DNA of 42,034 bases from Deltaproteobacteria bacterium GWA2_55_10. Its GTDB lineage: Bacteria; Desulfobacterota; GWC2-55-46. The stretch is from contig MGPL01000081.1 in assembly GCA_001797415.1 (NCBI GenBank), positions 1 to 42,034 on the forward strand, written 5' to 3'. Positions 2,387 through 39,126 of this stretch are shown here, one piece after another. The translations under genes and the position numbers were made by a program. The number at the start of each line of letters is the position of its first letter. The stretch's first letter is position 1. Under the pieces are notes generated by a model that saw only the letters and a list, made by a program, of their open reading frames with translations, made no database searches and was not told the DNA's origin.

Positions 2387-2523
2387 AAAAAAAAACCAAC
2401 TCCTTGGAAAGGGTTGGTCGCCTAATCTCCTTTCCAAGGGGGAGGCTCAGCCGTTTCCAGCAGAGCCCTATCGGCCAGCCCGCCTTAGCTTAAAAAAGCC
2501 TTAGGCAGGGTGGCTCGGAGATC
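2387..2523 (-). promoter_or_regulatory. Moco (molybdenum cofactor) riboswitch-like leader with terminator/antiterminator platform
   Basis: The minus strand reads CTCCGAGCC…GGAAAC…GCCTCCCCCTTGGAAAGGAG, matching my recollection of the conserved Moco RNA motif blocks. It is followed by hairpin CCAACCCTTTCCAAGGAGTTGG plus T9. The 3' aptamer segment CCTTGGAAAGG is complementary to CCTTTCCAAGG in the terminator, which gives an alternative pairing. It lies upstream of modABC. Confidence 0.7.
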
Positions 2524-2602
2524 GTAAGTTAAGTTTTAACGGGCCCCAGGCCCGAAAAGCAGGACAAGGTTATCACGAAAAAAGCGGGCGAGTCAAGAAA
2601 GG

Positions 2603-3988
2603 CTATATTGCCGCGTTTACCGAGGGTATCAGGAAGCCGAAGGTAACTCCCCTGTCCTCGCCTCCATGGACCCAAACGCTCCCCCCGTGCGCCTCGACGA
2701 ACTTCTTCACTATGCTCAGGCCCAGGCCCGCGCCTCCGGTCTTGACGCCGTCCTCTGTCTGGTAGAAGGCGTCGAATATCCTCTCGGCCTCCTCCACCGA
2801 GATGCCCTTGCCGTCGTCCGATACCGTAAACTTCAAGCCGTCCTGAGAGTGAACGGCATTTATGCTCACGTCCTGAGTGGCGTGCTTGAAGGCGTTGCTT
2901 AGAAGGTTATAAATGACCCTCTTGAGCTTGTCGGCGTCAGCTGCCACCTCGATGTCCGCCAGCGCGGATTCAGTGTACTCTTCGCCGTTGAAGAGCAGCT
3001 TCTTGCCGGAACCCTCGAAGGGCAGGGCAGCCTCACGTATGGCGTCGGAGAGCCTTACCAGTTCCTTCCGGAGCACGAGGCTTCCGCTCTCGGCCCTGCT
3101 GAAATCCAGTATGTCAGAGGTCATGGAGCCTATCTTCAGGGCGCATGTGGAGATTATGTTGAGCTTCTTTTTTGCGTTCTCAGGGACGTCCGGGTACATG
3201 AGCGCAAGCTCGGCATTGACAGAAATCGAGGTAAGCGGCCCCCTTATGTCGTGCACGATGTGGTCTATGTACATTTTTCTGAGCTTATCGAGCTCCTTCT
3301 GCCTGGTCATGTTGAAGGCGATACCGAGGAAATTCCTTATCTCGCCCTTGCGGTCCTTGATGGCGTTTATCGAAAGGAGGACCGGCACCTCCCTGCCGTC
3401 GCGGGTGAGGTTTATAATCTCGCCCCTCCAGTATCCTATTGAGGGATCGAGGATGTCGCCCCACATCTTCTCATAGAGCGCCTTTGTCGAATGGGACGAC
3501 TTGAGCACCCTCGGGTTCCTGCCGAGGACCTCATGCCTCTCGTAGCCGTAAGTCTCAAGGAAGGCCTGGTTCACGTCTATTATGGAGCCGTCTTTGTCCG
3601 TTATGGCGACAGAGTCGTTAGAGAACTTGAAGATGCGCCTGAACTCGTCGGTGAAGAAGGCCGGCATGCCGGTCTTCCTGCTCGACAGTGTCAGCATGTA
3701 CGAATAGAGCTCTCCGGTGCGGTCACGGAGGAGGTGTAGCGCGAGGTAGAACTCGGCTATGGAGCCGTCCTCGCAGAGGAGCCCTGTTTTCCTGCCAGAG
3801 AAGGCGGTATCATTTTCATTCTCTTCCAGCATTGACCTGAACGCCGGTTCCAGGCCCGGCGGGGCCAGGGATGAGAACTCTTTTCCTATGACCTCTTCGG
3901 CATCGTAGCCGAGCAGGTCCTCGAGACTGTGGCTGAACCTTATTATCCGCCCCTGCTTATCTAAGCTGAGGCTCCCTTCCTTTGACAT
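2603..3988 (-). CDS. PAS-domain sensor histidine kinase (2 PAS + HisKA + HATPase_c), no transmembrane segment
   Basis: 461 aa. Contains PAS-like segments, an H-box IVHDIRGPL, and an ATPase N/G boxes (LLSNAFKH…DDGKGI…GGAGLGLSIVKKFVEAHGG). Confidence 0.85.
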   Translation of the reverse strand: MSKEGSLSLDKQGRIIRFSHSLEDLLGYDAEEVIGKEFSSLAPPGLEPAFRSMLEENENDTAFSGRKTGLLCEDGSIAEFYLALHLLRDRTGELYSYMLTLSSRKTGMPAFFTDEFRRIFKFSNDSVAITDKDGSIIDVNQAFLETYGYERHEVLGRNPRVLKSSHSTKALYEKMWGDILDPSIGYWRGEIINLTRDGREVPVLLSINAIKDRKGEIRNFLGIAFNMTRQKELDKLRKMYIDHIVHDIRGPLTSISVNAELALMYPDVPENAKKKLNIISTCALKIGSMTSDILDFSRAESGSLVLRKELVRLSDAIREAALPFEGSGKKLLFNGEEYTESALADIEVAADADKLKRVIYNLLSNAFKHATQDVSINAVHSQDGLKFTVSDDGKGISVEEAERIFDAFYQTEDGVKTGGAGLGLSIVKKFVEAHGGSVWVHGGEDRGVTFGFLIPSVNAAI

Positions 3989-4012
3989 GGAACATTACCC
4001 GCCTTACCAAGA

Positions 4013-4504
4013 TTAGTGTGATGCCTGCGACAGACTTCCGAGTATTCCAGCCAGACCGTTTATCTCTCCTGGGAGGAAACGCACCCCGACCCGCCTTTTG
4101 CCGCTGCCTTCCGAGACCCAGACGACATGGGCGTCGAAGAAAAGGGCGCTCGCTCCATCGGGCTTGATCCCTATTGTAAGGCTCTCGCCAGAGCCGATCT
4201 CTTTATCAGTGCTGAACATGAGCCCGCCGCTGCTTATGTTCTCGCTCTTTGCGTCGCAAAAACATCTCTCTCCGGTCTTACGGAATTCCAGCGGAAAGGC
4301 GGAATCGTATCTCTGGTCGGACCTTCCGTTATTGATGTGCGCGGCGCCGAGCTTGTTGAGCGTGACCAATGCCAGCGGACTGGGCCTGGACTTTCCTCTC
4401 TCCCACCTGTTCACGGTAGAGAAGCTCACCCCAAGCTCCCTTGCCAATTTTTCCTGAGACCACGACAGAGTTGTTCTAAGCCGTTTTATTTCATCAGGCC
4501 CCAT
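4013..4504 (-). CDS. XRE-type HTH fused to a PilZ (c-di-GMP-binding) domain
   Basis: The N-terminus LSWSQEKLARELGVSFSTVNRWERGKSRPS is a Cro/C1-type HTH. The C-terminus carries both PilZ motifs, RSDQR (RxxxR) and NISSGG (D/NxSxxG), followed by beta-rich sequence. It lies 24 nt upstream of the PAS kinase. Confidence 0.75.
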   Translation of the reverse strand: MGPDEIKRLRTTLSWSQEKLARELGVSFSTVNRWERGKSRPSPLALVTLNKLGAAHINNGRSDQRYDSAFPLEFRKTGERCFCDAKSENISSGGLMFSTDKEIGSGESLTIGIKPDGASALFFDAHVVWVSEGSGKRRVGVRFLPGEINGLAGILGSLSQASH

Positions 4505-4572
4505 ACCCCACCCCCGCTAATTTGAAAGCCCACCCACTTGCTATAGCAGACCATATAGAATATTATTCCGCC

Positions 4573-4604
4573 AAAAAAAAATCAAGCAGAGTTAGTGCCT
4601 GATT
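4573..4604 (-). terminator. Intrinsic terminator after deoB (end of the long cbi operon)
   Basis: The minus strand reads AATCAGGCACTAACTCTGCTTGATT (8-bp stem) followed by T9. Confidence 0.6.
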
Positions 4605-4635
4605 TTATACTTTTTTAAAAGTGAATTAAAAACAG

Positions 4636-17400: not shown

Positions 17401-18426
17401 CTATTTCGCCCCGACCGCGCTTGAAGCCACAATCGCAAGCGCGTTGACTATGGCTACCGCGACAGTGCTGCCGCCTTTCCTGCCCCTGGTAAGGATATAC
17501 GGAAGGCCGCTCTTCTCGAGCTCTTCCTTGGCCTCTACCGCGCCCACGAAACCGACAGGCACGCCTATCACAAGGGCAGGCCTGGGCCCGCCTTCCCTTA
17601 CTATCTTTATCAATTCCATGAGGGCCGTCGGCGCGTTGCCTATGGCCAGGACAGCGCCGTCCATGTACCCGGCGGCCTTTCTCATGGACGCTGCCGTCTT
17701 TGTCATATTGCCGGAGAGCGCTGCCTCGGCAACATCCCTGTCAGCCGAGAAGCAGAGCACCTTTGCGCCGAAAGGCGCGAGCCTCGCCCTCGCGATCCCA
17801 GCCTCGATCATCTTTACGTCCGTGATTATATCCCTGCCAGACCTTACCGCCGCAATGCCGGATTCAATCGCGCCGGGACTGAAAGCGAGGATATCCTTGT
17901 ATTCAAAATCAGCGGTCGAATGTATGACCCTCTTTATTATGGGAAGCTCGACCGGGTCCAGGGCCGCCTCGTCAAGCTCTGTGCCGATTATCCTGAAGCT
18001 CTCCTTTTCTATCGGGTGCTGGCAAGGGACTCCCTCTTTTTTTTCAGCCGGCATGGCCCCGCTTATGCGCTCTATCGTGATATCGACCAGTTTGTCATGG
18101 AAGCCCAGGTTGTCGGTTACTCTTACTTGAAGCCCGGCGTGCCTTTTTTTCGCCTCCTCTATCTCTGCCGGGAGGTCCTTTGTGACATGAAGGCCCGCGT
18201 AGAGGAAATATGGCATGACAAGTATGTCCCTGAAGCCCTTTGATACGAGTATGTCAGCCGCTGCCTGGAAATCCGGCATCTCCATCTGAAGAAAGGCGCT
18301 CTGGACGCATCCGTAACCGCCCCTCTCCTGCAGGGCCTTTGCCACCATTCTCAACGTCTCGTTGGCCTCCGGCGCCTTGCTCCCGTGGCCCAACAGCATA
18401 ACCGCTTTTTTCCCGGCTATTGACAT
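17401..18426 (-). CDS. cbiC: Fusion of small sirohydrochlorin cobaltochelatase (CbiX-S) and cobalt-precorrin-8 methylmutase (CbiC)
   Basis: From ATG 18426: MSIAGKKAVMLLGHGSKAPEANETL…VMPYFLYAGLHVTKDLP (CbiX), then …HPIEKESFRII…KRVIHSTADFEY…ITDVKMIEAGI…GNAPTAL (CbiC). The track start at 18699 runs through the riboswitch and its terminator. Confidence 0.85.
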   Translation of the reverse strand: MSIAGKKAVMLLGHGSKAPEANETLRMVAKALQERGGYGCVQSAFLQMEMPDFQAAADILVSKGFRDILVMPYFLYAGLHVTKDLPAEIEEAKKRHAGLQVRVTDNLGFHDKLVDITIERISGAMPAEKKEGVPCQHPIEKESFRIIGTELDEAALDPVELPIIKRVIHSTADFEYKDILAFSPGAIESGIAAVRSGRDIITDVKMIEAGIARARLAPFGAKVLCFSADRDVAEAALSGNMTKTAASMRKAAGYMDGAVLAIGNAPTALMELIKIVREGGPRPALVIGVPVGFVGAVEAKEELEKSGLPYILTRGRKGGSTVAVAIVNALAIVASSAVGAK

Positions 18427-18456
18427 AATCGTCCCTCTCTTGATTCTGTACGGACA

Positions 18457-18494
18457 AAATAAAAAAGCCCTCTCTTCAAAAAAGAAGGAGGGCT
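18457..18494 (-). terminator. Intrinsic terminator of the cobalamin riboswitch expression platform
   Basis: The minus strand reads AGCCCTCCTTC-TTTTTT-GAAGAGAGGGCT followed by TTTTTATTTT, about 30 nt upstream of the cbiX-cbiC start codon. Confidence 0.75.
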
Positions 18495-18559
18495 GAAAAA
18501 GCAAAGAAAATGCCGCGCCCCTCACCTTCTTTACCATCGAAGAACCCGTGAGGCATATC

Positions 18560-18731
18560 CAGGCAGGTCTCCTGACTCGCGGTCTTCTCTGCCTACTCCC
18601 CGCGCCTTCCCGGCCTTTTAAGGCCAGTGGCTTCTCGCGGGTTTCGTTACCGCTTACAGTGGCGGGTCCGTTCCCGATTCTCCGCTTAACGCGGACCACG
18701 GGATTCCCTTTTTAGCCCCTTGGGGCTACCC
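18560..18731 (-). promoter_or_regulatory. Cobalamin (B12) riboswitch aptamer
   Basis: The minus strand reads GGTAGCC…AAAAGGGAATCCCGTG…GGACCCGCCACTGTAAGCGG…GAAGCCACTGGCC…GGCCGGGAAGGCG…AGTCAGGAGACCTGCC. The last block matches the B12-box consensus. Confidence 0.92.
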
Positions 18732-18757
18732 AGATATGTCTAAAATCAGTTTTCAGA

Positions 18758-18970: not shown

Positions 18971-19891
18971 TCATACTCTCTTTACCGGCATCCCGGGCTT
19001 TACGGACGGCCTCTCAAGCTCGAGGAGTATCTTGCCTTTCCTGAATATCCTGACTATTCCGGTAGAGCCGGATATCGTTATGGCGGCTGCTTCTGTGACA
19101 TCGGTTATCCCGGCGGCGGACATGTGCCTGCACCCGAGGCCTGGCATAAGCCCCTCTTCCTCGAGCGCCGCGTCAAGGTGGATCCCCGCGGCCATTACGA
19201 CCCCGTCCTCTCTTATGATGAACGCGCCGTCGAGGAGCGAAAACTCCTTTATCGTCTCGTGCACTGCCTCGTCGAGGATATTCCTCGAGTCTTCGGGATA
19301 GCCCTTGAACGGGTTCATTATAAGCGGCCTCGAGAGCTTCATCACCTTGTCGTTATCGCCTATTACAAAGGTGGTGCCGACGGTGCGCCCCTCCCTGCCT
19401 TCGCTGGCGAGCTCGAGCGCGATATTAAGGACAGCTTCGAGCACCTCTGGCTTGACCTTTTTGAAAAGGTCCATCGAGATGCCCATTGCCGTGAAGACCT
19501 CCGCCTCTTTCTTCAGGTCTATTATCATCAGGCTGTCAAGTATGCCGTGCACAGGCAGGCCGGTCACGCATACGACCTTGTCAGAGCTCTTTATTATGCC
19601 CTCCGCCACGCCCATTATAAGGGAGAGCTTCACCTGGCCAATGCGTGTGAGCCTCACGACCGGAAGCTTGAGGATAGCCTTCACTTCCTTCCTCAGCGGC
19701 TCAAGCGTTTTCAACGTCTCTTCGCTCTGGGTGATGAGGACGAACCTCTTCTTGTCCCTGGACCTCCTCCAGAAGCCCCTGTCCTCGATGGCATCGACGA
19801 AGAAAAATAGCGCGCCCGCCCTGTGGTCCTTGAGCGCGGCAACCGCGCCAGCCATCATCTTTTTATTCAGCATGAGCGCGTTCATCGTCAT
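18971..19891 (-). CDS. Diadenylate cyclase (DAC/DisA_N domain) with an N-terminal pyruvate-kinase-C-like regulatory domain (DacZ-like architecture)
   Basis: The C-terminal half reads GTTFVIGDND…LDGAFIIREDG…GLGCRHMSAAGITDVTEAAAITISGSTGIVRIF, carrying the DGA and RH motifs of DAC domains. The ATG shares one base with the trmJ TGA (TGATG); an alternative GTG start is at 19894. Confidence 0.75.
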   Translation of the reverse strand: MTMNALMLNKKMMAGAVAALKDHRAGALFFFVDAIEDRGFWRRSRDKKRFVLITQSEETLKTLEPLRKEVKAILKLPVVRLTRIGQVKLSLIMGVAEGIIKSSDKVVCVTGLPVHGILDSLMIIDLKKEAEVFTAMGISMDLFKKVKPEVLEAVLNIALELASEGREGRTVGTTFVIGDNDKVMKLSRPLIMNPFKGYPEDSRNILDEAVHETIKEFSLLDGAFIIREDGVVMAAGIHLDAALEEEGLMPGLGCRHMSAAGITDVTEAAAITISGSTGIVRIFRKGKILLELERPSVKPGMPVKRV

Positions 19892-20658
19892 CACCGCCGC
19901 TCTTTAACGGTGCGCGCCTGCGTCTGAGCGAATATGCCACGGAGCATATTCACCTCCTTCATCATGAGTCCTGTCCTGCCGAAGAGCCTCCTGAAGCTCC
20001 TCATTATGGCCTCGAGCAGATACTCTCCGCCCTTGTCGCCGTAGCCGAGGCCCTTCAACATCTCCTCCAGGTGGGCGTACATCTTCTCGACCTCTTCCTT
20101 CGGAGCCGCCTTGATAGTGGGCTTTTTCGGCATCTGGGCGCTGAAAAGATGATAGCAGATAATCATGACCGCATGGGAGAGGTTGATCGACGGGTACTCA
20201 TCAGATGTGGGTATCTCGACGAGCATGTCGCAGACCGGTATCTCCTCGTTCAGCAGGCCCCTGTCCTCCCGGCCGAAGAGTATTCCGACCCTGCTCTTGT
20301 GAGCGAGCCTCAATATGGCTGGCACGGCCTCGTCAAGCGATAGCACCGGGAACCTCTGCCTGCCTATCCTCCGGGTAGCGCCCACTATTATCGCGGGCTC
20401 GTTCAAATAGCTCGCAAGGTCAGGGAAGACCCTGGCGCTTGCGAGCACAGCGTCGGCCTTGCAGGCCATTGAGTATGATTCGTTGTTCTTGTAATCGCAG
20501 GGGTTTATGAGTACAAGGTCAGAAAAACCCGTGTTCTTCATGACCCTTGCCGTGCTGCCGACATTGCCTGAGCTCTGGGGCTCGACGAGCACGATGGAAA
20601 TATTGGCGTTGGCCGGGGGCCTGGGAGCCTTTGGTTTGGGTTTGTTGCTTCTTCCCAT
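19891..20658 (-). CDS. trmJ: tRNA (cytidine/uridine-2'-O)-methyltransferase, SpoU/TrmH class
   Basis: 255 aa. ISIVLVEPQSSGNVGSTARVMKNTGFSDLVLINP…ILFGREDRGLLNEE…PSINLSHAVMIICY matches the TrmJ pattern. Confidence 0.8.
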   Translation of the reverse strand: MGRSNKPKPKAPRPPANANISIVLVEPQSSGNVGSTARVMKNTGFSDLVLINPCDYKNNESYSMACKADAVLASARVFPDLASYLNEPAIIVGATRRIGRQRFPVLSLDEAVPAILRLAHKSRVGILFGREDRGLLNEEIPVCDMLVEIPTSDEYPSINLSHAVMIICYHLFSAQMPKKPTIKAAPKEEVEKMYAHLEEMLKGLGYGDKGGEYLLEAIMRSFRRLFGRTGLMMKEVNMLRGIFAQTQARTVKERR

Positions 20659-20851: not shown

Positions 20852-20997
20852 AGGCTACCTCTAAAAATTAGGAATTTTTTCTGAGGTCAAGGAAGGGCGG
20901 AAATAAAAAGCGCAGCATATGTTGTGGTATATGTGAGCATTTTTATTTTCGCCCTGACACAGAGATCAGGAAAAATAACAATTTTTAGCGGTAGCCT
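20852..20997. repeat. Family-C element: 146-bp imperfect long palindrome
   Basis: Termini aggctacctctaaaaatt and aatttttagcggtagcct. Inner arms gggcggaaataaaaa and tttttattttcgccc. The whole left arm aligns to the reverse complement of the right arm. The right terminus contains the stop codon of the 351-aa gene. Confidence 0.7.
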
Positions 20998-22051
20998 AAA
21001 CTACGAGATCGATTTGCTGAACTGTTCCTGGGGTCATGTCTTCGGTGAGGAACAGGCCGGTCGATTGCACCTGGCCGGTCGTGGTGTTGAAGGAATCCCT
21101 TACCTCGAAGCTGGTATTGGTATAGGAGAGGCTTATTGCCCCGATATTGAACTCCTTAAGGGTCTTCAATACATCCTTGCCGTCCAGGTCCTTTGACCAT
21201 ACGAAAAGGTTGTTATAGGCCTGGTCAGCCTCGTCTATCCACTTGTTGTTGTCGTGGTCGAGATGCGCCAGCTCGCTGAAGCCGTTGCCGGTCCTGGGGC
21301 CGAAGAGCTCGTTTCCGTTATTTACCTTGCCATCGCCATTGAGGTCGATCGCGAGAAAGCCTGAGCCGTGGCCCGCAAACGGGATAAGCTCGTTTGTCCC
21401 GTCTGAATCAAGGTCGAACTCGAACTTCATGGAGGTAAGCTCGGCCGCGCTTCCGCTGTAGTTGATCACAAGCGGGTCTATGGCGTTGCCCGCCTTTACG
21501 CTGGTATTTGTCTCGGTGATGGACGCCCTCATCATGCTCAGGCTCAGGTCAAATGATATTTCGGCGCCGTCCTTTGTCCTTATCGTGCCTGACGCGCTGA
21601 AGGTCACCGCCTCGACGCTCGCCACAGTCTCGCTCGACTCATAGGTCATGCCCCATTCGGGTGCGGCTTCGGCCTGAGCGGTCTCTCCGGCATTTTTAAG
21701 GGCCTCGACATCGCCGGGCTTAACCGGCTCGATGCTCATGACCTTTATCTTCTTGCCGGTCAGGGCCTCTAACAGGAGCTTCTTTACGAAGGTCTCGTTG
21801 TCAATGCCCTCGGGCATCTCTATCGCGCGCCTCTCGCAGCCCCCTTCAACGAACCTCTTTTTCATGGACTCGAAGCGGGAGCGGGCCTCCTCCGATATCT
21901 CAAGGGTATCCGCGACAGGGCGGCGCATCGCATCTCTGTCGTTCTCCGAGGGCCTCGGCCCAAGCCAGGCCTTTAGCTCGCTCTTTTTGGCGCCGTGCTC
22001 GACATGCGAGCGCAGAGCGTTCATGCTTATGTTGGAATCGGCTATTACCAT
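20996..22051 (-). CDS. Calcium-binding-repeat protein (DxDxDG / EF-hand-like loops), function unknown
   Basis: 351 aa. The C-terminal half contains DLDSDGTNELIPF, DLNGDGKVNNGNELFG and DHDNNKWIDEAD. No obvious signal peptide. Confidence 0.6.
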   Translation of the reverse strand: MVIADSNISMNALRSHVEHGAKKSELKAWLGPRPSENDRDAMRRPVADTLEISEEARSRFESMKKRFVEGGCERRAIEMPEGIDNETFVKKLLLEALTGKKIKVMSIEPVKPGDVEALKNAGETAQAEAAPEWGMTYESSETVASVEAVTFSASGTIRTKDGAEISFDLSLSMMRASITETNTSVKAGNAIDPLVINYSGSAAELTSMKFEFDLDSDGTNELIPFAGHGSGFLAIDLNGDGKVNNGNELFGPRTGNGFSELAHLDHDNNKWIDEADQAYNNLFVWSKDLDGKDVLKTLKEFNIGAISLSYTNTSFEVRDSFNTTTGQVQSTGLFLTEDMTPGTVQQIDLVV

Positions 22052-24517: not shown

Positions 24518-24991
24518 CTACTTCTGAAGAGAATCCCTGAAGAGCCCTTCAAGTAATCTGTTCGAGGGTATGCTCCAGACTATGAGGCCGAGGGATAAAG
24601 CGGCAAGCGCGAAGAAGTCTACATACAGCGCGGAGAGGAAGAAGAGGAAAAAACCGAAGATGAGCACTGCCTCGGCAAATGCCATTGAGATGACGGGCGT
24701 TATGAGGAGGTACCTTAAAAGCGCCTCGGCGTCAACAGCCCTGTTTCTCACCTTCTCAGGCGAATAGCGCGCCTTTGATATGAGCGCTGCGGCCGCAACA
24801 GATAATGCGCTCAGGCCGTAAAAAACAGCCCTCAGGATATTCTCGTTGAAATCAGGTATAAAACCCTGAAAATAGATGTAAAGAAACTTGACAAGGATAA
24901 CTACGCCGGAGTACATCAGCACAAAAGCAGCGGCGAATACGGCAAGGAGCGTGACAGAGCGCCTTATGCCCTTTATTATCTCCTTCTCCAT
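24518..24991 (-). CDS. Hypothetical 4-TM membrane protein
   Basis: 157-aa hydrophobic ORF with an ATG start. I recognise no motif. Confidence 0.5.
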   Translation of the reverse strand: MEKEIIKGIRRSVTLLAVFAAAFVLMYSGVVILVKFLYIYFQGFIPDFNENILRAVFYGLSALSVAAAALISKARYSPEKVRNRAVDAEALLRYLLITPVISMAFAEAVLIFGFFLFFLSALYVDFFALAALSLGLIVWSIPSNRLLEGLFRDSLQK

Positions 24992-25132
24992 CCGTCTTCC
25001 CTGATTTCCGTCATGTAAGGCTTGAAAGCTCGCGTGGTAATCTTAAATGGCTGGCCGGGCAATGCTTTATGCGATAGAATCTTCACGCATAAGCTAAAAC
25101 AAAAGCCGCGCCAAATCAAGGAGGTTTTTCAG

Positions 25133-25606
25133 ATGCTCTTTCTCCTTATGCATATCGTCCATCTTCTGGCGGTCATAGTCTGGATAGGCGGCCTCGTCTT
25201 CGTCACAGGCATAGTCCTTCCAATGGCCATCAAGACGCCTGACCCGCTGCAAAAGGTCCTGACCTTCCAACGCATAGAGCACAGGTTCGCCCCGCTCGCA
25301 AAGGTCTATAACATAATCACAGGCATAACCGGATTCGTAATGGTCTGGCAGATGGGCTGGTATGAGCTCTACTTCACCAGAGAAGGCTGGGCGCTCACCT
25401 TCATGACAGCCATCTGGCTCTTCTGGTTCGTCATGCTCGTAGGCCTCGAACCCATCGTAATAAAAAAGATGCTCGACAAGATGGCCAGGGACGGCGCCAA
25501 GATGGACATAGACGGGATATTCCGCAAGGTAAAGACCCTCCACTGGTTCATGGTCGCGATATCTCTCGCCGCGGCAGCCGCCGGCGCGCTTGTGGCGCAT
25601 GGATAA
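25133..25606 (+). CDS. Hypothetical membrane protein (CopD/HemJ-like 4-TM pattern)
   Basis: The start is placed at ATG 25133, behind an AAGGAGG sequence (25118-25124): MLFLLMHIVHLLAVIVWIGGLVFV… The track start at 25022 has no ribosome-binding site. Confidence 0.55.
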   Translation: MLFLLMHIVHLLAVIVWIGGLVFVTGIVLPMAIKTPDPLQKVLTFQRIEHRFAPLAKVYNIITGITGFVMVWQMGWYELYFTREGWALTFMTAIWLFWFVMLVGLEPIVIKKMLDKMARDGAKMDIDGIFRKVKTLHWFMVAISLAAAAAGALVAHG

Positions 25607-25610
25607 TATT

Positions 25611-25640
25611 GGGAGAAACTTTCTGTAGAAAGTTTCTCCC
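25611..25640. terminator. Perfect 14-bp palindrome between convergent genes
   Basis: GGGAGAAACTTTCT/AGAAAGTTTCTCCC starts 5 nt after the stop at 25606. There is no clear T-run, so terminator function is uncertain. Confidence 0.35.
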
Positions 25641-25774
25641 AAACCCCCTTCAAAGACTTTTAGTTCCTGTCCGGCCCCCTGAAAAGCAAAGGGGGTCAGA
25701 CAGGAAGACCAAAAACTCTTTAAAGAAGTCCGAGAACCTTATACAAAAGCCTCCTCAAATATTATTCCAATCGC

Positions 25775-29540: not shown

Positions 29541-30656
29541 ATGAATGACCGTCTGAAGTTTACCGAAGGATTGCCCAAGAAGGCGAAGATACTCATTGCC
29601 GACGACGACAGGTTCTATATAAGGATATTCTCGGACCTCATAGCGGACCTCGGCTTTGAATGCATACCAGCGGCAAACGGGCTCGAAGCGCTGGAGAAGG
29701 CGCGCACGCACTGCCCGGACGTCCTCATAATAGACGTCGTGATGCCGGGCATGGACGGCTTTGAGGTCACCAGAAGGCTCAAGGAAGACCCCGCCACGAT
29801 GTACCTGCCTGTCGTCATCGTAACCTCCCTTGCAGACAGGGACTCCAAGATAAAAGGACTGCAGAGCGGCGCCGACGAGCTGCTTTCAAAGCCCGTGGAC
29901 GAGACGGAGTTCAGGGTGCGGCTCAGGAACCTCCTCAAGGTAAAGAAGTACGAGGACTTCCTGGTCGAGCACGGCAGGAGGCTCGCCAACGAGGTTGAGG
30001 ACAAGTCCGTTCAGCTCGAGCGTGCCTTCACGAAGATAAGGAAGGGCTATGCGGAGACCGTTTACAGGCTTACGCTCGCGGCCGAGCAGAGGGACAAGGA
30101 GACCGGGAGCCATATAAAGAGGATAAGCCTCTACTCGCAGCTCCTCGCGAGGTACCTGCGCCTGCCCGAGCAGGCTGTGGAGGCCATATTCTTCGCAAGT
30201 CCCATGCACGACGTTGGCAAGATAGGCATCCCGGACTCGATACTCCTGAAGCCGGGCTCTCTCACCGATGCCGAGTTCGAGATAATGAGGACGCACACCA
30301 CCATAGGGGCCGAAATTCTCAAGGACTCGGATTCGGAGATACTCGATACCGCCAGGGAGATAGCGCTCACGCACCACGAGAGGTGGGACGGCGAGGGCTA
30401 CCCCAGGGGGCTCAAGGGAGAAGAGATACCTCTCTCGGGCAGGATAGTCAATGTCGTGGATATCTACGACGCCATAAGGAGCCCGCGCCCGTACAAGGAA
30501 GGGCTCGATCACGAGACCGCCTGCAAGATAATCCTCGGGCACCCCGAAAGGTTTGACCCCGTCATACTCAAGGCCTTCGTGGACTGCGCAGAGGAGTTCA
30601 GGAGGCTTTACGACGAGAACAACGAATTAGAGGCTTGCTGTAAAAGCCCGGCTTGA
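29541..30656 (+). CDS. Response regulator with an HD-GYP c-di-GMP phosphodiesterase domain
   Basis: REC domain (KILIADDD…DVLIIDVVMPGMDGFE…K) plus HD-GYP (…SPMHDVGKIGIPD…HHERWDGEGYPRGL). Confidence 0.88.
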   Translation: MNDRLKFTEGLPKKAKILIADDDRFYIRIFSDLIADLGFECIPAANGLEALEKARTHCPDVLIIDVVMPGMDGFEVTRRLKEDPATMYLPVVIVTSLADRDSKIKGLQSGADELLSKPVDETEFRVRLRNLLKVKKYEDFLVEHGRRLANEVEDKSVQLERAFTKIRKGYAETVYRLTLAAEQRDKETGSHIKRISLYSQLLARYLRLPEQAVEAIFFASPMHDVGKIGIPDSILLKPGSLTDAEFEIMRTHTTIGAEILKDSDSEILDTAREIALTHHERWDGEGYPRGLKGEEIPLSGRIVNVVDIYDAIRSPRPYKEGLDHETACKIILGHPERFDPVILKAFVDCAEEFRRLYDENNELEACCKSPA

Positions 30657-37725: not shown

Positions 37726-37855
37726 TTCAGGCTGCTCAAAAAGCTCCATATGCGAGGCCCCGGTTAAACCGGGGAGCGAGGAATGAGGCGTACTCTTTTT
37801 GTACGCCTCATTGACGAGCAAGACAACAAAGCAGATGGACTTTTTCAGCAGACTG
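37726..37855 (+). repeat. Family-A repeat, copy A7 (perfect 12-bp central stem)
   Basis: Full-length match. The central hairpin is AATGAGGCGTAC-tcttttt-GTACGCCTCATT at 37782-37812. Confidence 0.9.
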
Positions 37856-37869
37856 CCAGGGGGCTTAAG

Positions 37870-39126
37870 ATGCCTCGTTCAGATATATCGACGGAGCAGG
37901 CGGCCCGGGCAATACCAGGCCCTGAGCAGGCCGACATCATCGTCGGCATAGCCAGCTACAACAACGCGAGGACCATCGGCCACGTAGTCCGCGCGGTCGA
38001 TGCCGGACTTGCCAAGTACTTCCCTTCCCAGAAGGCCATAATCGTAAATTCAGACGGCGGCTCCTCGGACAGCACGCCTGAGGCCGTTTTGGGCGCGAGC
38101 GTCGATCACAAGGCCATATTCCTCTCCCACAGGCTCACTACCGTCAACAGGATAACCTCGCCCTATCACGGCATACCGGGAAAGGGCAGCGCGTTCAAGG
38201 CCATTTTCGAGATGGCCGCGAGCCTGAATGCCAAGGCATGCTGCGTGGTCGACGCAGACCTCCGTTCCATAACGCCTGAGTGGATGGAGCTTCTGCTTTC
38301 GCCGGTCTACAAGGAGGCATTTGATTTCGTCGCGCCACTGTATACGCGCCACAAGTACGACGGCACCATCACGAATTCCATAATATACCCGCTCACGAGG
38401 GCCCTTTACGGCAGGAAGATCCGCCAGCCCATAGGCGGCGATTTCGGCTTCTCCGGCGAGATGGCGAGGTTCTATCTCCACCAGGACGTCTGGACATCGG
38501 ACATAGCGCGCTTCGGCATTGATATATGGATGACCACGGAGGCGCTCGCGGGCAACTTCAAGGTCTGCCAGTCCTATCTGGGCGCGAAGATACACGACCC
38601 CAAGGACCCTGGCGCAGACCTTCGCGACATGTTCGTCCAGGTCGTGGGTTCCCTCATGTCCCTCACCGAGAAGCACAACGCCGAATGGAAGAAGACACAC
38701 GACTCAAAAGAGGTGCCCACATTCGGATTCAAGTACTCCGTCGGGGTAGTGCCAATAAGGGTCAATACCGAAGGCATGCTCCGGAGCTTCAGGATAGGCG
38801 CGGAGAACCTCAAGGAGGTCTGGGCCGGTTTCATGGACAAGCCGGTCGTGGACTGGCTTGTGAAACTCAGCCATGAGGAAGCGGCCTCGTTCAGGTTCCC
38901 CAAAGAGACGTGGGTCGGGATAGTCTACGATTACATACTGGCCTATCACCACAAAAAGCTCCAGGCCGAGCATCTCTTGAAATCGCTCATACCGTTGTAC
39001 CACGGCCGCACGGCCTCTTTTTTCCTTGAGACCATGGACATGGGCGACGACGAGGCCGAGCAGGTGGTAGAGGATGTCGCCGCCGAGTACGAAAACCAGA
39101 AAGGTTACCTCGCAGGCAACTGGTAA
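37870..39126 (+). CDS. GT-A fold glycosyltransferase (GT2/GT81-like), possibly acting on a glycosyl-phosphoglycerate
   Basis: From ATG 37870, behind AGGGGG: …ADIIVGIASYNNARTIGHVV…VVDADLRSITPEW… The track start at 37783 is an ATG inside repeat A7. Confidence 0.65.
   Translation: MPRSDISTEQAARAIPGPEQADIIVGIASYNNARTIGHVVRAVDAGLAKYFPSQKAIIVNSDGGSSDSTPEAVLGASVDHKAIFLSHRLTTVNRITSPYHGIPGKGSAFKAIFEMAASLNAKACCVVDADLRSITPEWMELLLSPVYKEAFDFVAPLYTRHKYDGTITNSIIYPLTRALYGRKIRQPIGGDFGFSGEMARFYLHQDVWTSDIARFGIDIWMTTEALAGNFKVCQSYLGAKIHDPKDPGADLRDMFVQVVGSLMSLTEKHNAEWKKTHDSKEVPTFGFKYSVGVVPIRVNTEGMLRSFRIGAENLKEVWAGFMDKPVVDWLVKLSHEEAASFRFPKETWVGIVYDYILAYHHKKLQAEHLLKSLIPLYHGRTASFFLETMDMGDDEAEQVVEDVAAEYENQKGYLAGNW

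Follow-up and report, generated by a model that had tools for sequence, protein, structure and literature searches.

The present analysis concerns two adjacent genes on contig MGPL01000081.1 of Deltaproteobacteria bacterium GWA2_55_10, of which a stretch of 42,034 nt (hereafter the window) was analysed. The first gene encodes a 163-aa protein in which an XRE-type helix-turn-helix (HTH) domain is joined to a PilZ domain (hereafter HTH-PilZ or the regulator), and the second gene encodes a soluble PAS domain histidine kinase. Both open reading frames (ORFs) were confirmed on the reverse strand with 24 nt between them, as a preliminary description of the same DNA had placed them. The gene order at the locus is cbi genes, a phosphopentomutase-like 'Metalloenzyme' gene (PPM), HTH-PilZ, the PAS kinase, modA and modB, and the same order was found in relatives down to about 36-44% regulator identity. 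The features of the locus, with the evidence for each in brackets, are:

4505-4635, reverse strand: upstream intergenic region of HTH-PilZ
4578-4606, reverse strand: terminator-like hairpin and T-run closing the PPM gene
4539-4548, reverse strand: 10-bp perfect palindrome TGCTATAGCA (within the conserved upstream block)
4013-4504, reverse strand: HTH-PilZ regulator, 163 aa, ATG start (ORF, Pfam, AlphaFold2, Foldseek)
4358-4489, reverse strand: XRE/Cro-C1 HTH domain, residues 6-49 (Pfam HTH_3, alignment, PDB matches)
4061-4324, reverse strand: PilZ domain, residues 61-148 (Pfam, DSSP on the model, Foldseek)
4310-4324, reverse strand: RxxxR motif, R61-S-D-Q-R65 (read from the sequence)
4223-4240, reverse strand: (D/N)xSxxG motif, N89-I-S91-S-G-G94 (read from the sequence)
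3989-4012, reverse strand: spacer of 24 nt from the regulator stop to the kinase start (sequence)
2603-3988, reverse strand: soluble PAS-PAS-HisKA-HATPase_c kinase, 461 aa, ATG start (Pfam)
about 3686-3979, reverse strand: kinase PAS1 (Pfam)
about 3305-3619, reverse strand: kinase PAS2 (Pfam)
3083-3268, reverse strand: kinase HisKA (Pfam, 46 bits)
2624-2938, reverse strand: kinase HATPase_c (Pfam, 98 bits)
2411-2532, reverse strand: full-length molybdenum/tungsten cofactor (Moco) riboswitch RF01055 upstream of modA (Rfam, 82.3 bits; gathering score 36)

The fusion of an HTH to an intact PilZ domain was borne out by profile hidden Markov models (HMMs), with 48.1 bits for HTH_3 (PF01381, E = 1e-12, residues 6-49; curated cut-off 23 bits) and 49.3 bits for PilZ (PF07238, E = 7e-13, residues 61-148; curated cut-off 22.5 bits). 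Both canonical motifs that contact cyclic di-GMP (c-di-GMP) are intact, RSDQR at residues 61-65 and NISSGG at residues 89-94, and both are conserved in the family described below. The Myxococcus PilZ paralogue family TIGR02266 scored 33 bits on the protein, which is under its cut-off, and NCBIfam held no equivalog for HTH-PilZ or for the kinase. In a profile search of the PDB, the sequence relatives of the HTH half were DBP48, HigA2 and P22 C2, all of which are DNA-binding XRE proteins; the search for a solved two-domain relative matched the HTH half alone.

The structure of the 163-aa protein was modelled with AlphaFold2 from a family alignment of 33 sequences, and the model reached a mean predicted local distance difference test (pLDDT) of 83.9. 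The N-terminal domain is all-helical (helices 3-13, 17-24, 28-35 and 43-57) and is followed by a linker of residues 58-62 with pLDDT below 50, which includes the first arginine of RxxxR, so that the motif starts four residues past the last HTH helix and inside this low-confidence segment. According to DSSP, the PilZ barrel is six-stranded and spans residues 71-143 (71-76, 83-90, 94-99, 108-113, 121-132 and 137-143), with a C-terminal helix at 148-161. In the Foldseek comparison with the PDB, canonical and mostly c-di-GMP-bound PilZ domains ranked on top for the C-terminal half, among them BcsA (E = 3e-6), the CeSA PilZ domain 4i86 (template modelling (TM) score 0.72) and PA0012 (TM score 0.83), and further matches were Alg44, YcgR, MotI, PlzA and MrkH (5kec, E = 9e-4). 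The N-terminal half matched the DNA-binding C-terminal domain of the antitoxin HigA2 (TM score 0.80), and no solved chain spanning both halves was found in the PDB by Foldseek. In the predicted fold, a canonical PilZ barrel follows an XRE domain.

The distribution of the architecture was followed in three data sets. A word-indexed search of 5.8 billion proteins gave 47 clusters (90% identity) with both domains and lengths of 147-194 aa, which come from metagenomes or metagenome-assembled genomes (MAGs), belong to Deltaproteobacteria or Thermodesulfobacteriota and are named only 'PilZ domain-containing protein' or 'helix-turn-helix domain-containing protein'. When 1.84 billion representatives at 50% identity were searched exhaustively by HMM, 40 matches had E <= 1e-30; 28 of the 150 HMM matches listed are full-length, single-stretch matches of 154-184 aa, and the remainder are mostly multi-HTH repeat proteins. 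HTH-PilZ is matched over most or all of its length at 27 loci (L004-L030) of species-representative genomes, and all of these loci lie in MAGs labelled Thermodesulfobacteriota, Deltaproteobacteria or plain 'bacterium'. Independent fusions of the two domains were also considered. Of ten lower-scoring candidates scanned with Pfam, all but P0110 were rejected as double-HTH, PilZ-PilZ, PilZ-Hsp70 and similar proteins; P0110, the only one with both domains, belongs to the same HTH-PilZ family. The family is real, rare and lineage-specific, and it is so far known from uncultured Thermodesulfobacteriota only.

Across the 33 aligned members R61, R65 and G94 are invariant, S91 reaches at least 90% conservation and N or D stands at position 89; the segment A21-E35 (ARELGVSFSTVNRWE) is invariant apart from L24 and the S/C position 29, and in the PilZ barrel divergence goes down to about 36% overall identity. 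The HTH of HTH-PilZ is 50-70% identical to HTH-only YiaG/MqsA-like proteins of many phyla, and the conservation of the recognition helix is less telling because it is typical also of these relatives.

In a neighbour-joining tree, which carries no support values, the kinase-linked HTH-PilZ copies lie on the backbone and the pilus/cytochrome-linked copies form one derived clade. The kinase-linked position of the regulator may therefore be ancestral, with duplications and losses later. The pilus/cytochrome-linked copies belong to a subgroup of about 172 aa that is located after pilMNOPQ/secretin and dihaem-cytochrome (DHC) genes. At L007, L008, L010, L020 and L088 the contigs terminate 60-430 bp past the HTH-PilZ gene, and the contig ends in this pilus/cytochrome-linked subgroup suggest a repeat or assembly-breaking element downstream. 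Additionally, MAG OFTM298 contains four HTH-PilZ paralogues on different contigs (L021, L025, L026 and L030), so that the family expands through within-genome duplication.

The neighbouring gene encodes the soluble dual-PAS HisKA-HATPase kinase of the preliminary description: the four Pfam domains were recovered, no hydrophobic or transmembrane segment was found (maximum 19-residue Kyte-Doolittle value 1.08) and the catalytic boxes are intact, with H246 in HDIRGP, the N box NLLSNA at 361, the G1 box DDGKG at 391 and the G2 box GAGLG at 419. Pfam gave no receiver (REC) domain within the kinase. The closest solved structure to PAS2 (residues ~115-230) is the FAD-binding tandem PAS of MmoS (3ewk, E = 1e-14), followed by LOV domains and PAS1 of NifL (2gj3). 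In PAS2, a Pro in GRNPRVL takes the place where, by the LOV consensus, LOV domains have their photoactive Cys, and PAS2 is plausibly a flavin-based redox sensor. The orthologues of the kinase form a discrete group of about 110 clusters at at least 46% identity, after which identity drops steeply to 31%.

In the survey of all loci the kinase was found directly 3' of the regulator in 16 loci (the window, L001, L004-L006, L013, L016, L022-L024, L027, L028, L084, L086, L090 and L096), and the spacing was 19-56 nt in 13 of them. The regulator was found without the kinase in 12 loci, at all of which the sequence continues for at least 2.3 kb downstream. Two or three loci have the regulator alone in the Cbi-PPM-modABC slot. 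At L011 and L014 the Cbi-PPM-regulator-modAB arrangement is kept and the kinase is gone, at L090 the regulator-kinase pair is present and modABC does not follow downstream, and at L091 and L092 HTH-PilZ copies stand alone; altogether the regulator is situated outside the Cbi-PPM-modABC slot at at least ten loci. Four kinase orthologues on long contigs were sampled (L094, L095, L096 and L097), of which L096 alone has the regulator. The other three carry the kinase in the same Cbi-PPM-[ ]-modABC slot with the regulator gene absent: no trace of it was found by tblastn, and 234-411 nt of non-coding sequence upstream of the kinase replace it. This implies repeated gain or loss of the regulator at exactly that position; the kinase does not need HTH-PilZ, since close orthologues occupy the same slot without it.

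Pairwise identities were compared for the 15 paired loci in which both regulator and kinase are full-length. Kinase and PPM identities correlated with a Spearman coefficient of 0.78, and the regulator gave 0.19 against the kinase and 0.21 against PPM, a weak test for a small protein near saturation (~40% identity); co-evolution of regulator and kinase was rejected as giving no signal in it. Judged from gene order and these identities, the kinase gene is part of the core of the conserved Cbi-PPM-[ ]-modABC block and is inherited vertically, and its pairing with the regulator is frequent, probably operonic and facultative in evolution.

The limits of the transcription unit were deduced from both flanks. 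No terminator-like site was found in the 24-nt spacer before the kinase, and the short gap together with this result points to co-transcription of regulator and kinase; because 24 nt leave no space for a separate kinase promoter, expression of the kinase is expected to depend on the promoter of the regulator. On the upstream side, the 3' arm and T-run of the terminator-like hairpin after PPM (CTTGATTTTTT) are invariant in the four closest relatives. After this hairpin lies the conserved block CTATATG-N5-GCTATAGCA, which contains the palindrome TGCTATAGCA and is common to the upstream regions of the four closest relatives in the form CTATRTG-N5-GCTATAGCA. It is a candidate for an extended -10 promoter, an operator or both. 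In the whole window the palindrome is present a single time, against a chance expectation of 0.84. On the downstream side, the Moco riboswitch lies past the stop codon of the kinase and before modA, with a hairpin and a T9 run behind it, so that modABC is under its own cis-regulator, which bounds the regulator-kinase unit. With a terminator on one side and the independently regulated modABC on the other, regulator and kinase presumably form a two-gene unit. Control of modABC by the regulator or the kinase was considered and rejected, as modABC has its own Moco riboswitch and the pair occurs without modABC at L090. At L084, L086 and L094 a small HTH_1 gene lies between the kinase and modA, and the window has no such gene.

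A near-perfect TGTGA-N6-TCACA palindrome was observed about 130-150 nt upstream of the HTH-PilZ start at L007, L008, L010, L012, L015, L017, L019, L020 and L092. This CRP/FNR-like sequence was rejected as the family operator, as it occurs in the 172-aa subgroup and is absent from the subgroup of the window; it is more likely the site of some other regulator.

We favour the interpretation, with a probability of roughly 55%, that HTH-PilZ acts as a one-component transcription factor which responds to c-di-GMP and is restricted to this lineage. In the proposed mechanism, the N-terminal XRE-type HTH would bind DNA and the C-terminal canonical PilZ domain would bind c-di-GMP. Since the RxxxR arm lies in a flexible linker four residues past the HTH, the ligand should wrap the linker onto the barrel, as in YcgR-type proteins, MrkH and PlzA. 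By analogy with the locking of these proteins and with the dimerisation of BldD, the ordered linker may then fix the orientation of the HTH or favour HTH dimerisation and so switch DNA binding. The gene would have its own promoter region past the terminator that ends the cbi/PPM operon, and this promoter would also drive the kinase in this genome; if the regulator autoregulates, transcription of the kinase would become c-di-GMP-dependent. The kinase itself would act as an independent orphan that signals to an unlinked receiver.

Three groups of known proteins illustrate how such a switch could work. The best functional analogy is BldD of Streptomyces, which likewise has an N-terminal XRE HTH, a flexible linker and a C-terminal c-di-GMP-binding domain, and in which c-di-GMP drives dimerisation and DNA binding (PMC4151990). 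However, the C-terminal domain of BldD is helical, is not a PilZ domain and binds a c-di-GMP tetramer through motifs of its own, whereas HTH-PilZ has a PilZ barrel; BldD was not among the PDB sequence matches or the Foldseek matches listed. In YcgR, VCA0042 and PlzA, types that are all among the Foldseek matches of the C-terminal half, the RxxxR arm also lies in the interdomain linker and the ligand locks the N-terminal domain against the PilZ barrel, but their N-terminal domains are PilZ-like barrels acting on flagellar or other protein partners (nucleic acids for PlzA) and not HTH domains. MrkH is a small one-component protein in which a C-terminal canonical PilZ domain (RxxxR and (D/N)xSxxG) couples c-di-GMP to DNA binding. 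Unlike HTH-PilZ, whose N-terminal domain is a standard all-helical XRE HTH, MrkH lacks an HTH, has an N-terminal PilZ-like barrel (PilZN2) and contacts DNA mainly via a C-terminal helix.

The genome also encodes c-di-GMP turnover, which counts in favour of a c-di-GMP-responsive regulator. The other cyclic-dinucleotide genes of the window are:

29541-30656, forward strand: REC-HD-GYP, RpfG-like response regulator (REC 88 bits, HD_5 112 bits)
18971-19894, reverse strand: DacZ-type diadenylate cyclase, DacZ_P sensor and DAC (Pfam)

The first of these contains the HD and GYP motifs and lies 25 kb from the regulator-kinase pair. The preliminary description was right in calling it an HD-GYP protein and missed its N-terminal receiver, the only receiver domain among the ORFs scanned in the 42-kb window. 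Consequently, the statement in the same description that the kinase has no response regulator holds for its immediate surroundings and not for the window as a whole. No receiver gene was found beside the kinase within ~5 kb in the window, nor in any annotated kinase-linked locus. The diadenylate cyclase, which had been named correctly, makes cyclic di-AMP (c-di-AMP), which is not a known PilZ ligand. As the window encodes one REC-HD-GYP protein, one c-di-AMP cyclase without bearing on PilZ and neither a GGDEF nor an EAL protein, the view that cyclic-dinucleotide signalling is prominent in this stretch was overstated.

Several observations weigh against a c-di-GMP-controlled transcription factor. 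Neither a GGDEF nor an EAL domain, and hence no diguanylate cyclase, was found among the scanned ORFs of the window, and whether the ligand is c-di-GMP or another cyclic dinucleotide cannot be read from the sequence. The predicted TM score of the AlphaFold2 model, 0.56, means that the mutual orientation of HTH and PilZ is not predicted. The near-invariant recognition helix does not prove a shared operator, and from a comparison of 26 non-redundant upstream regions of family members no operator could be defined: TATAGCA was present in 11 of the 26 regions, a marginal enrichment over the shuffle maximum of 10, and aligned with distant members the conserved upstream element takes the form TGnTATAnn (TGATATAAT in L017), which resembles an extended -10. 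Moreover, every member of the family is derived from a MAG or a metagenome. A separate point is the functional pairing with the kinase that the preliminary description implied, which is weakened by the occurrence of each gene alone and by the rho of 0.19.

Part of this evidence would also fit a protein that is not a c-di-GMP-switched DNA binder, in which the PilZ domain binds another cyclic dinucleotide or no ligand, or the HTH serves protein contacts only. Besides the failure to find an operator and the lack of a diguanylate cyclase in the window, the functional divergence of PilZ superfamily members (10.1101/2020.02.11.943704) speaks for it. Yet both motifs are invariant or nearly so despite divergence to ~36% identity, as purifying selection on ligand binding would produce, and the structural neighbours are ligand-bound canonical PilZ domains, which leaves this explanation unlikely.

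The position of the REC-HD-GYP gene raises the idea of an integrated circuit, in which the kinase would phosphorylate the REC-HD-GYP protein, which would set the c-di-GMP level, and HTH-PilZ would read this level and feed back on the regulator-kinase operon. It is consistent with such a circuit that this protein, with intact catalytic motifs, is the only receiver in the window, that none of the annotated kinase-linked loci has a receiver next to the kinase, and that the kinase-linked copies on the backbone of the tree possibly hold the ancestral position. However, the two loci are 25 kb apart with no evidence of linkage or matching specificity, genomes such as this usually carry many orphan receivers, and the pairing of regulator and kinase is facultative and without co-divergence. 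We regard the circuit as rather doubtful.

Two further explanations place the regulator in physical contact with the kinase. In the first, the PilZ domain would bind the kinase in a c-di-GMP-dependent manner, so that HTH-PilZ would be a receiver-less output or modulator of an orphan kinase, in the style of HapZ and SagS of Pseudomonas aeruginosa, a precedent for a PilZ protein that is functionally tied to a histidine kinase and controls it (10.1101/2020.02.11.943704). The adjacency of the two genes in 16 loci, their probable co-transcription and the missing adjacent receiver would agree with this. Against it, HapZ consists of a PilZ domain alone and contacts its kinase at a REC domain, whereas HTH-PilZ has two domains and the kinase has no REC; the kinase stands alone in its slot in three of the four sampled orthologues, at least 12 loci have the regulator and no kinase, and a co-divergence signal is lacking. 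An adaptor of this kind seems improbable. In the second, HTH-PilZ would be the missing output of the orphan PAS kinase, a receiver-less partner able to bind DNA whose docking on the kinase, or release from it, would follow c-di-GMP; redox sensing by the flavin-type PAS domain and the level of the second messenger would thereby be integrated on one promoter with no REC phosphotransfer. This is quite improbable. Finally, a role as the antitoxin-like XRE component in a module for toxin-antitoxin function or phage defence is hardly credible: the HTH is most similar to HigA2/MqsA-type antitoxin domains and has PADLOC matches to HTH components, but these are weak (at most 23 bits) and confined to the generic HTH, and the flanks hold no toxin-like neighbour but cobalamin, phosphopentomutase-like, kinase and molybdate-transport genes, housekeeping neighbours whose synteny is conserved across the lineage.

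With regard to the literature, the preliminary description had regarded the architecture as experimentally uncharacterised. No paper describing an XRE-PilZ protein was found in a search on PilZ with XRE/HTH_3, in which subscription journals were thinly covered, so that absence is no proof. In a 2025 review MrkH is the only PilZ-based transcription factor given, and the survey of PilZ-related domains by Galperin and Chou leaves HTH fusions unmentioned. The idea of a PilZ/DNA-binding fusion itself is not new: di-domain PilZ proteins including DNA-binding fusions have been catalogued without experiments, among them 'cluster 15' with 97 uncharacterised PilZ proteins that have a C-terminal HTH (bioRxiv 10.1101/2020.02.11.943704). 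These resemble HTH-PilZ in combining PilZ and HTH in 140-280 aa with a predicted role in gene expression, and they differ in the order of the domains, PilZ-HTH there versus HTH-PilZ here, and in that the HTH is not stated to be of the XRE type (10.1101/2020.02.11.943704). The PilZ-HTH class has thus already been noticed, and the HTH-PilZ order and the present family are apparently not described.

If the favoured interpretation is true, the combination of a canonical PilZ domain with a canonical XRE HTH would be a minimal, portable switch from c-di-GMP to transcription, which could serve as a compact biosensor scaffold. It would also offer a first entry point to transcription under c-di-GMP control in an uncultured lineage of the Thermodesulfobacteriota, where one paralogous subgroup of HTH-PilZ adjoins type IV pilus/secretin and multihaem cytochrome genes. 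The advance is incremental, as fusions of PilZ to many output domains are known already and its DNA-binding partners have been catalogued; for a specialist HTH-PilZ would be a neat candidate and not a surprise, with an evolutionarily optional connection to the kinase.

Among the remaining ORFs of the window, four of 157-447 aa had no Pfam match at the thresholds used: 20996-22051, 24518-24991 and 25094-25642 on the reverse strand and 37783-39126 on the forward strand. One further regulatory RNA was located:

18545-18748, reverse strand: cobalamin riboswitch RF00174 (Rfam, 124.8 bits)

The diadenylate cyclase gene lies immediately upstream of this riboswitch region, and the riboswitch precedes the CbiX-CbiC / CbiMNQO / cbi gene string. 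The longest CbiX-CbiC ORF (17401-18699) overlaps the riboswitch, and its true start is therefore probably located further downstream.

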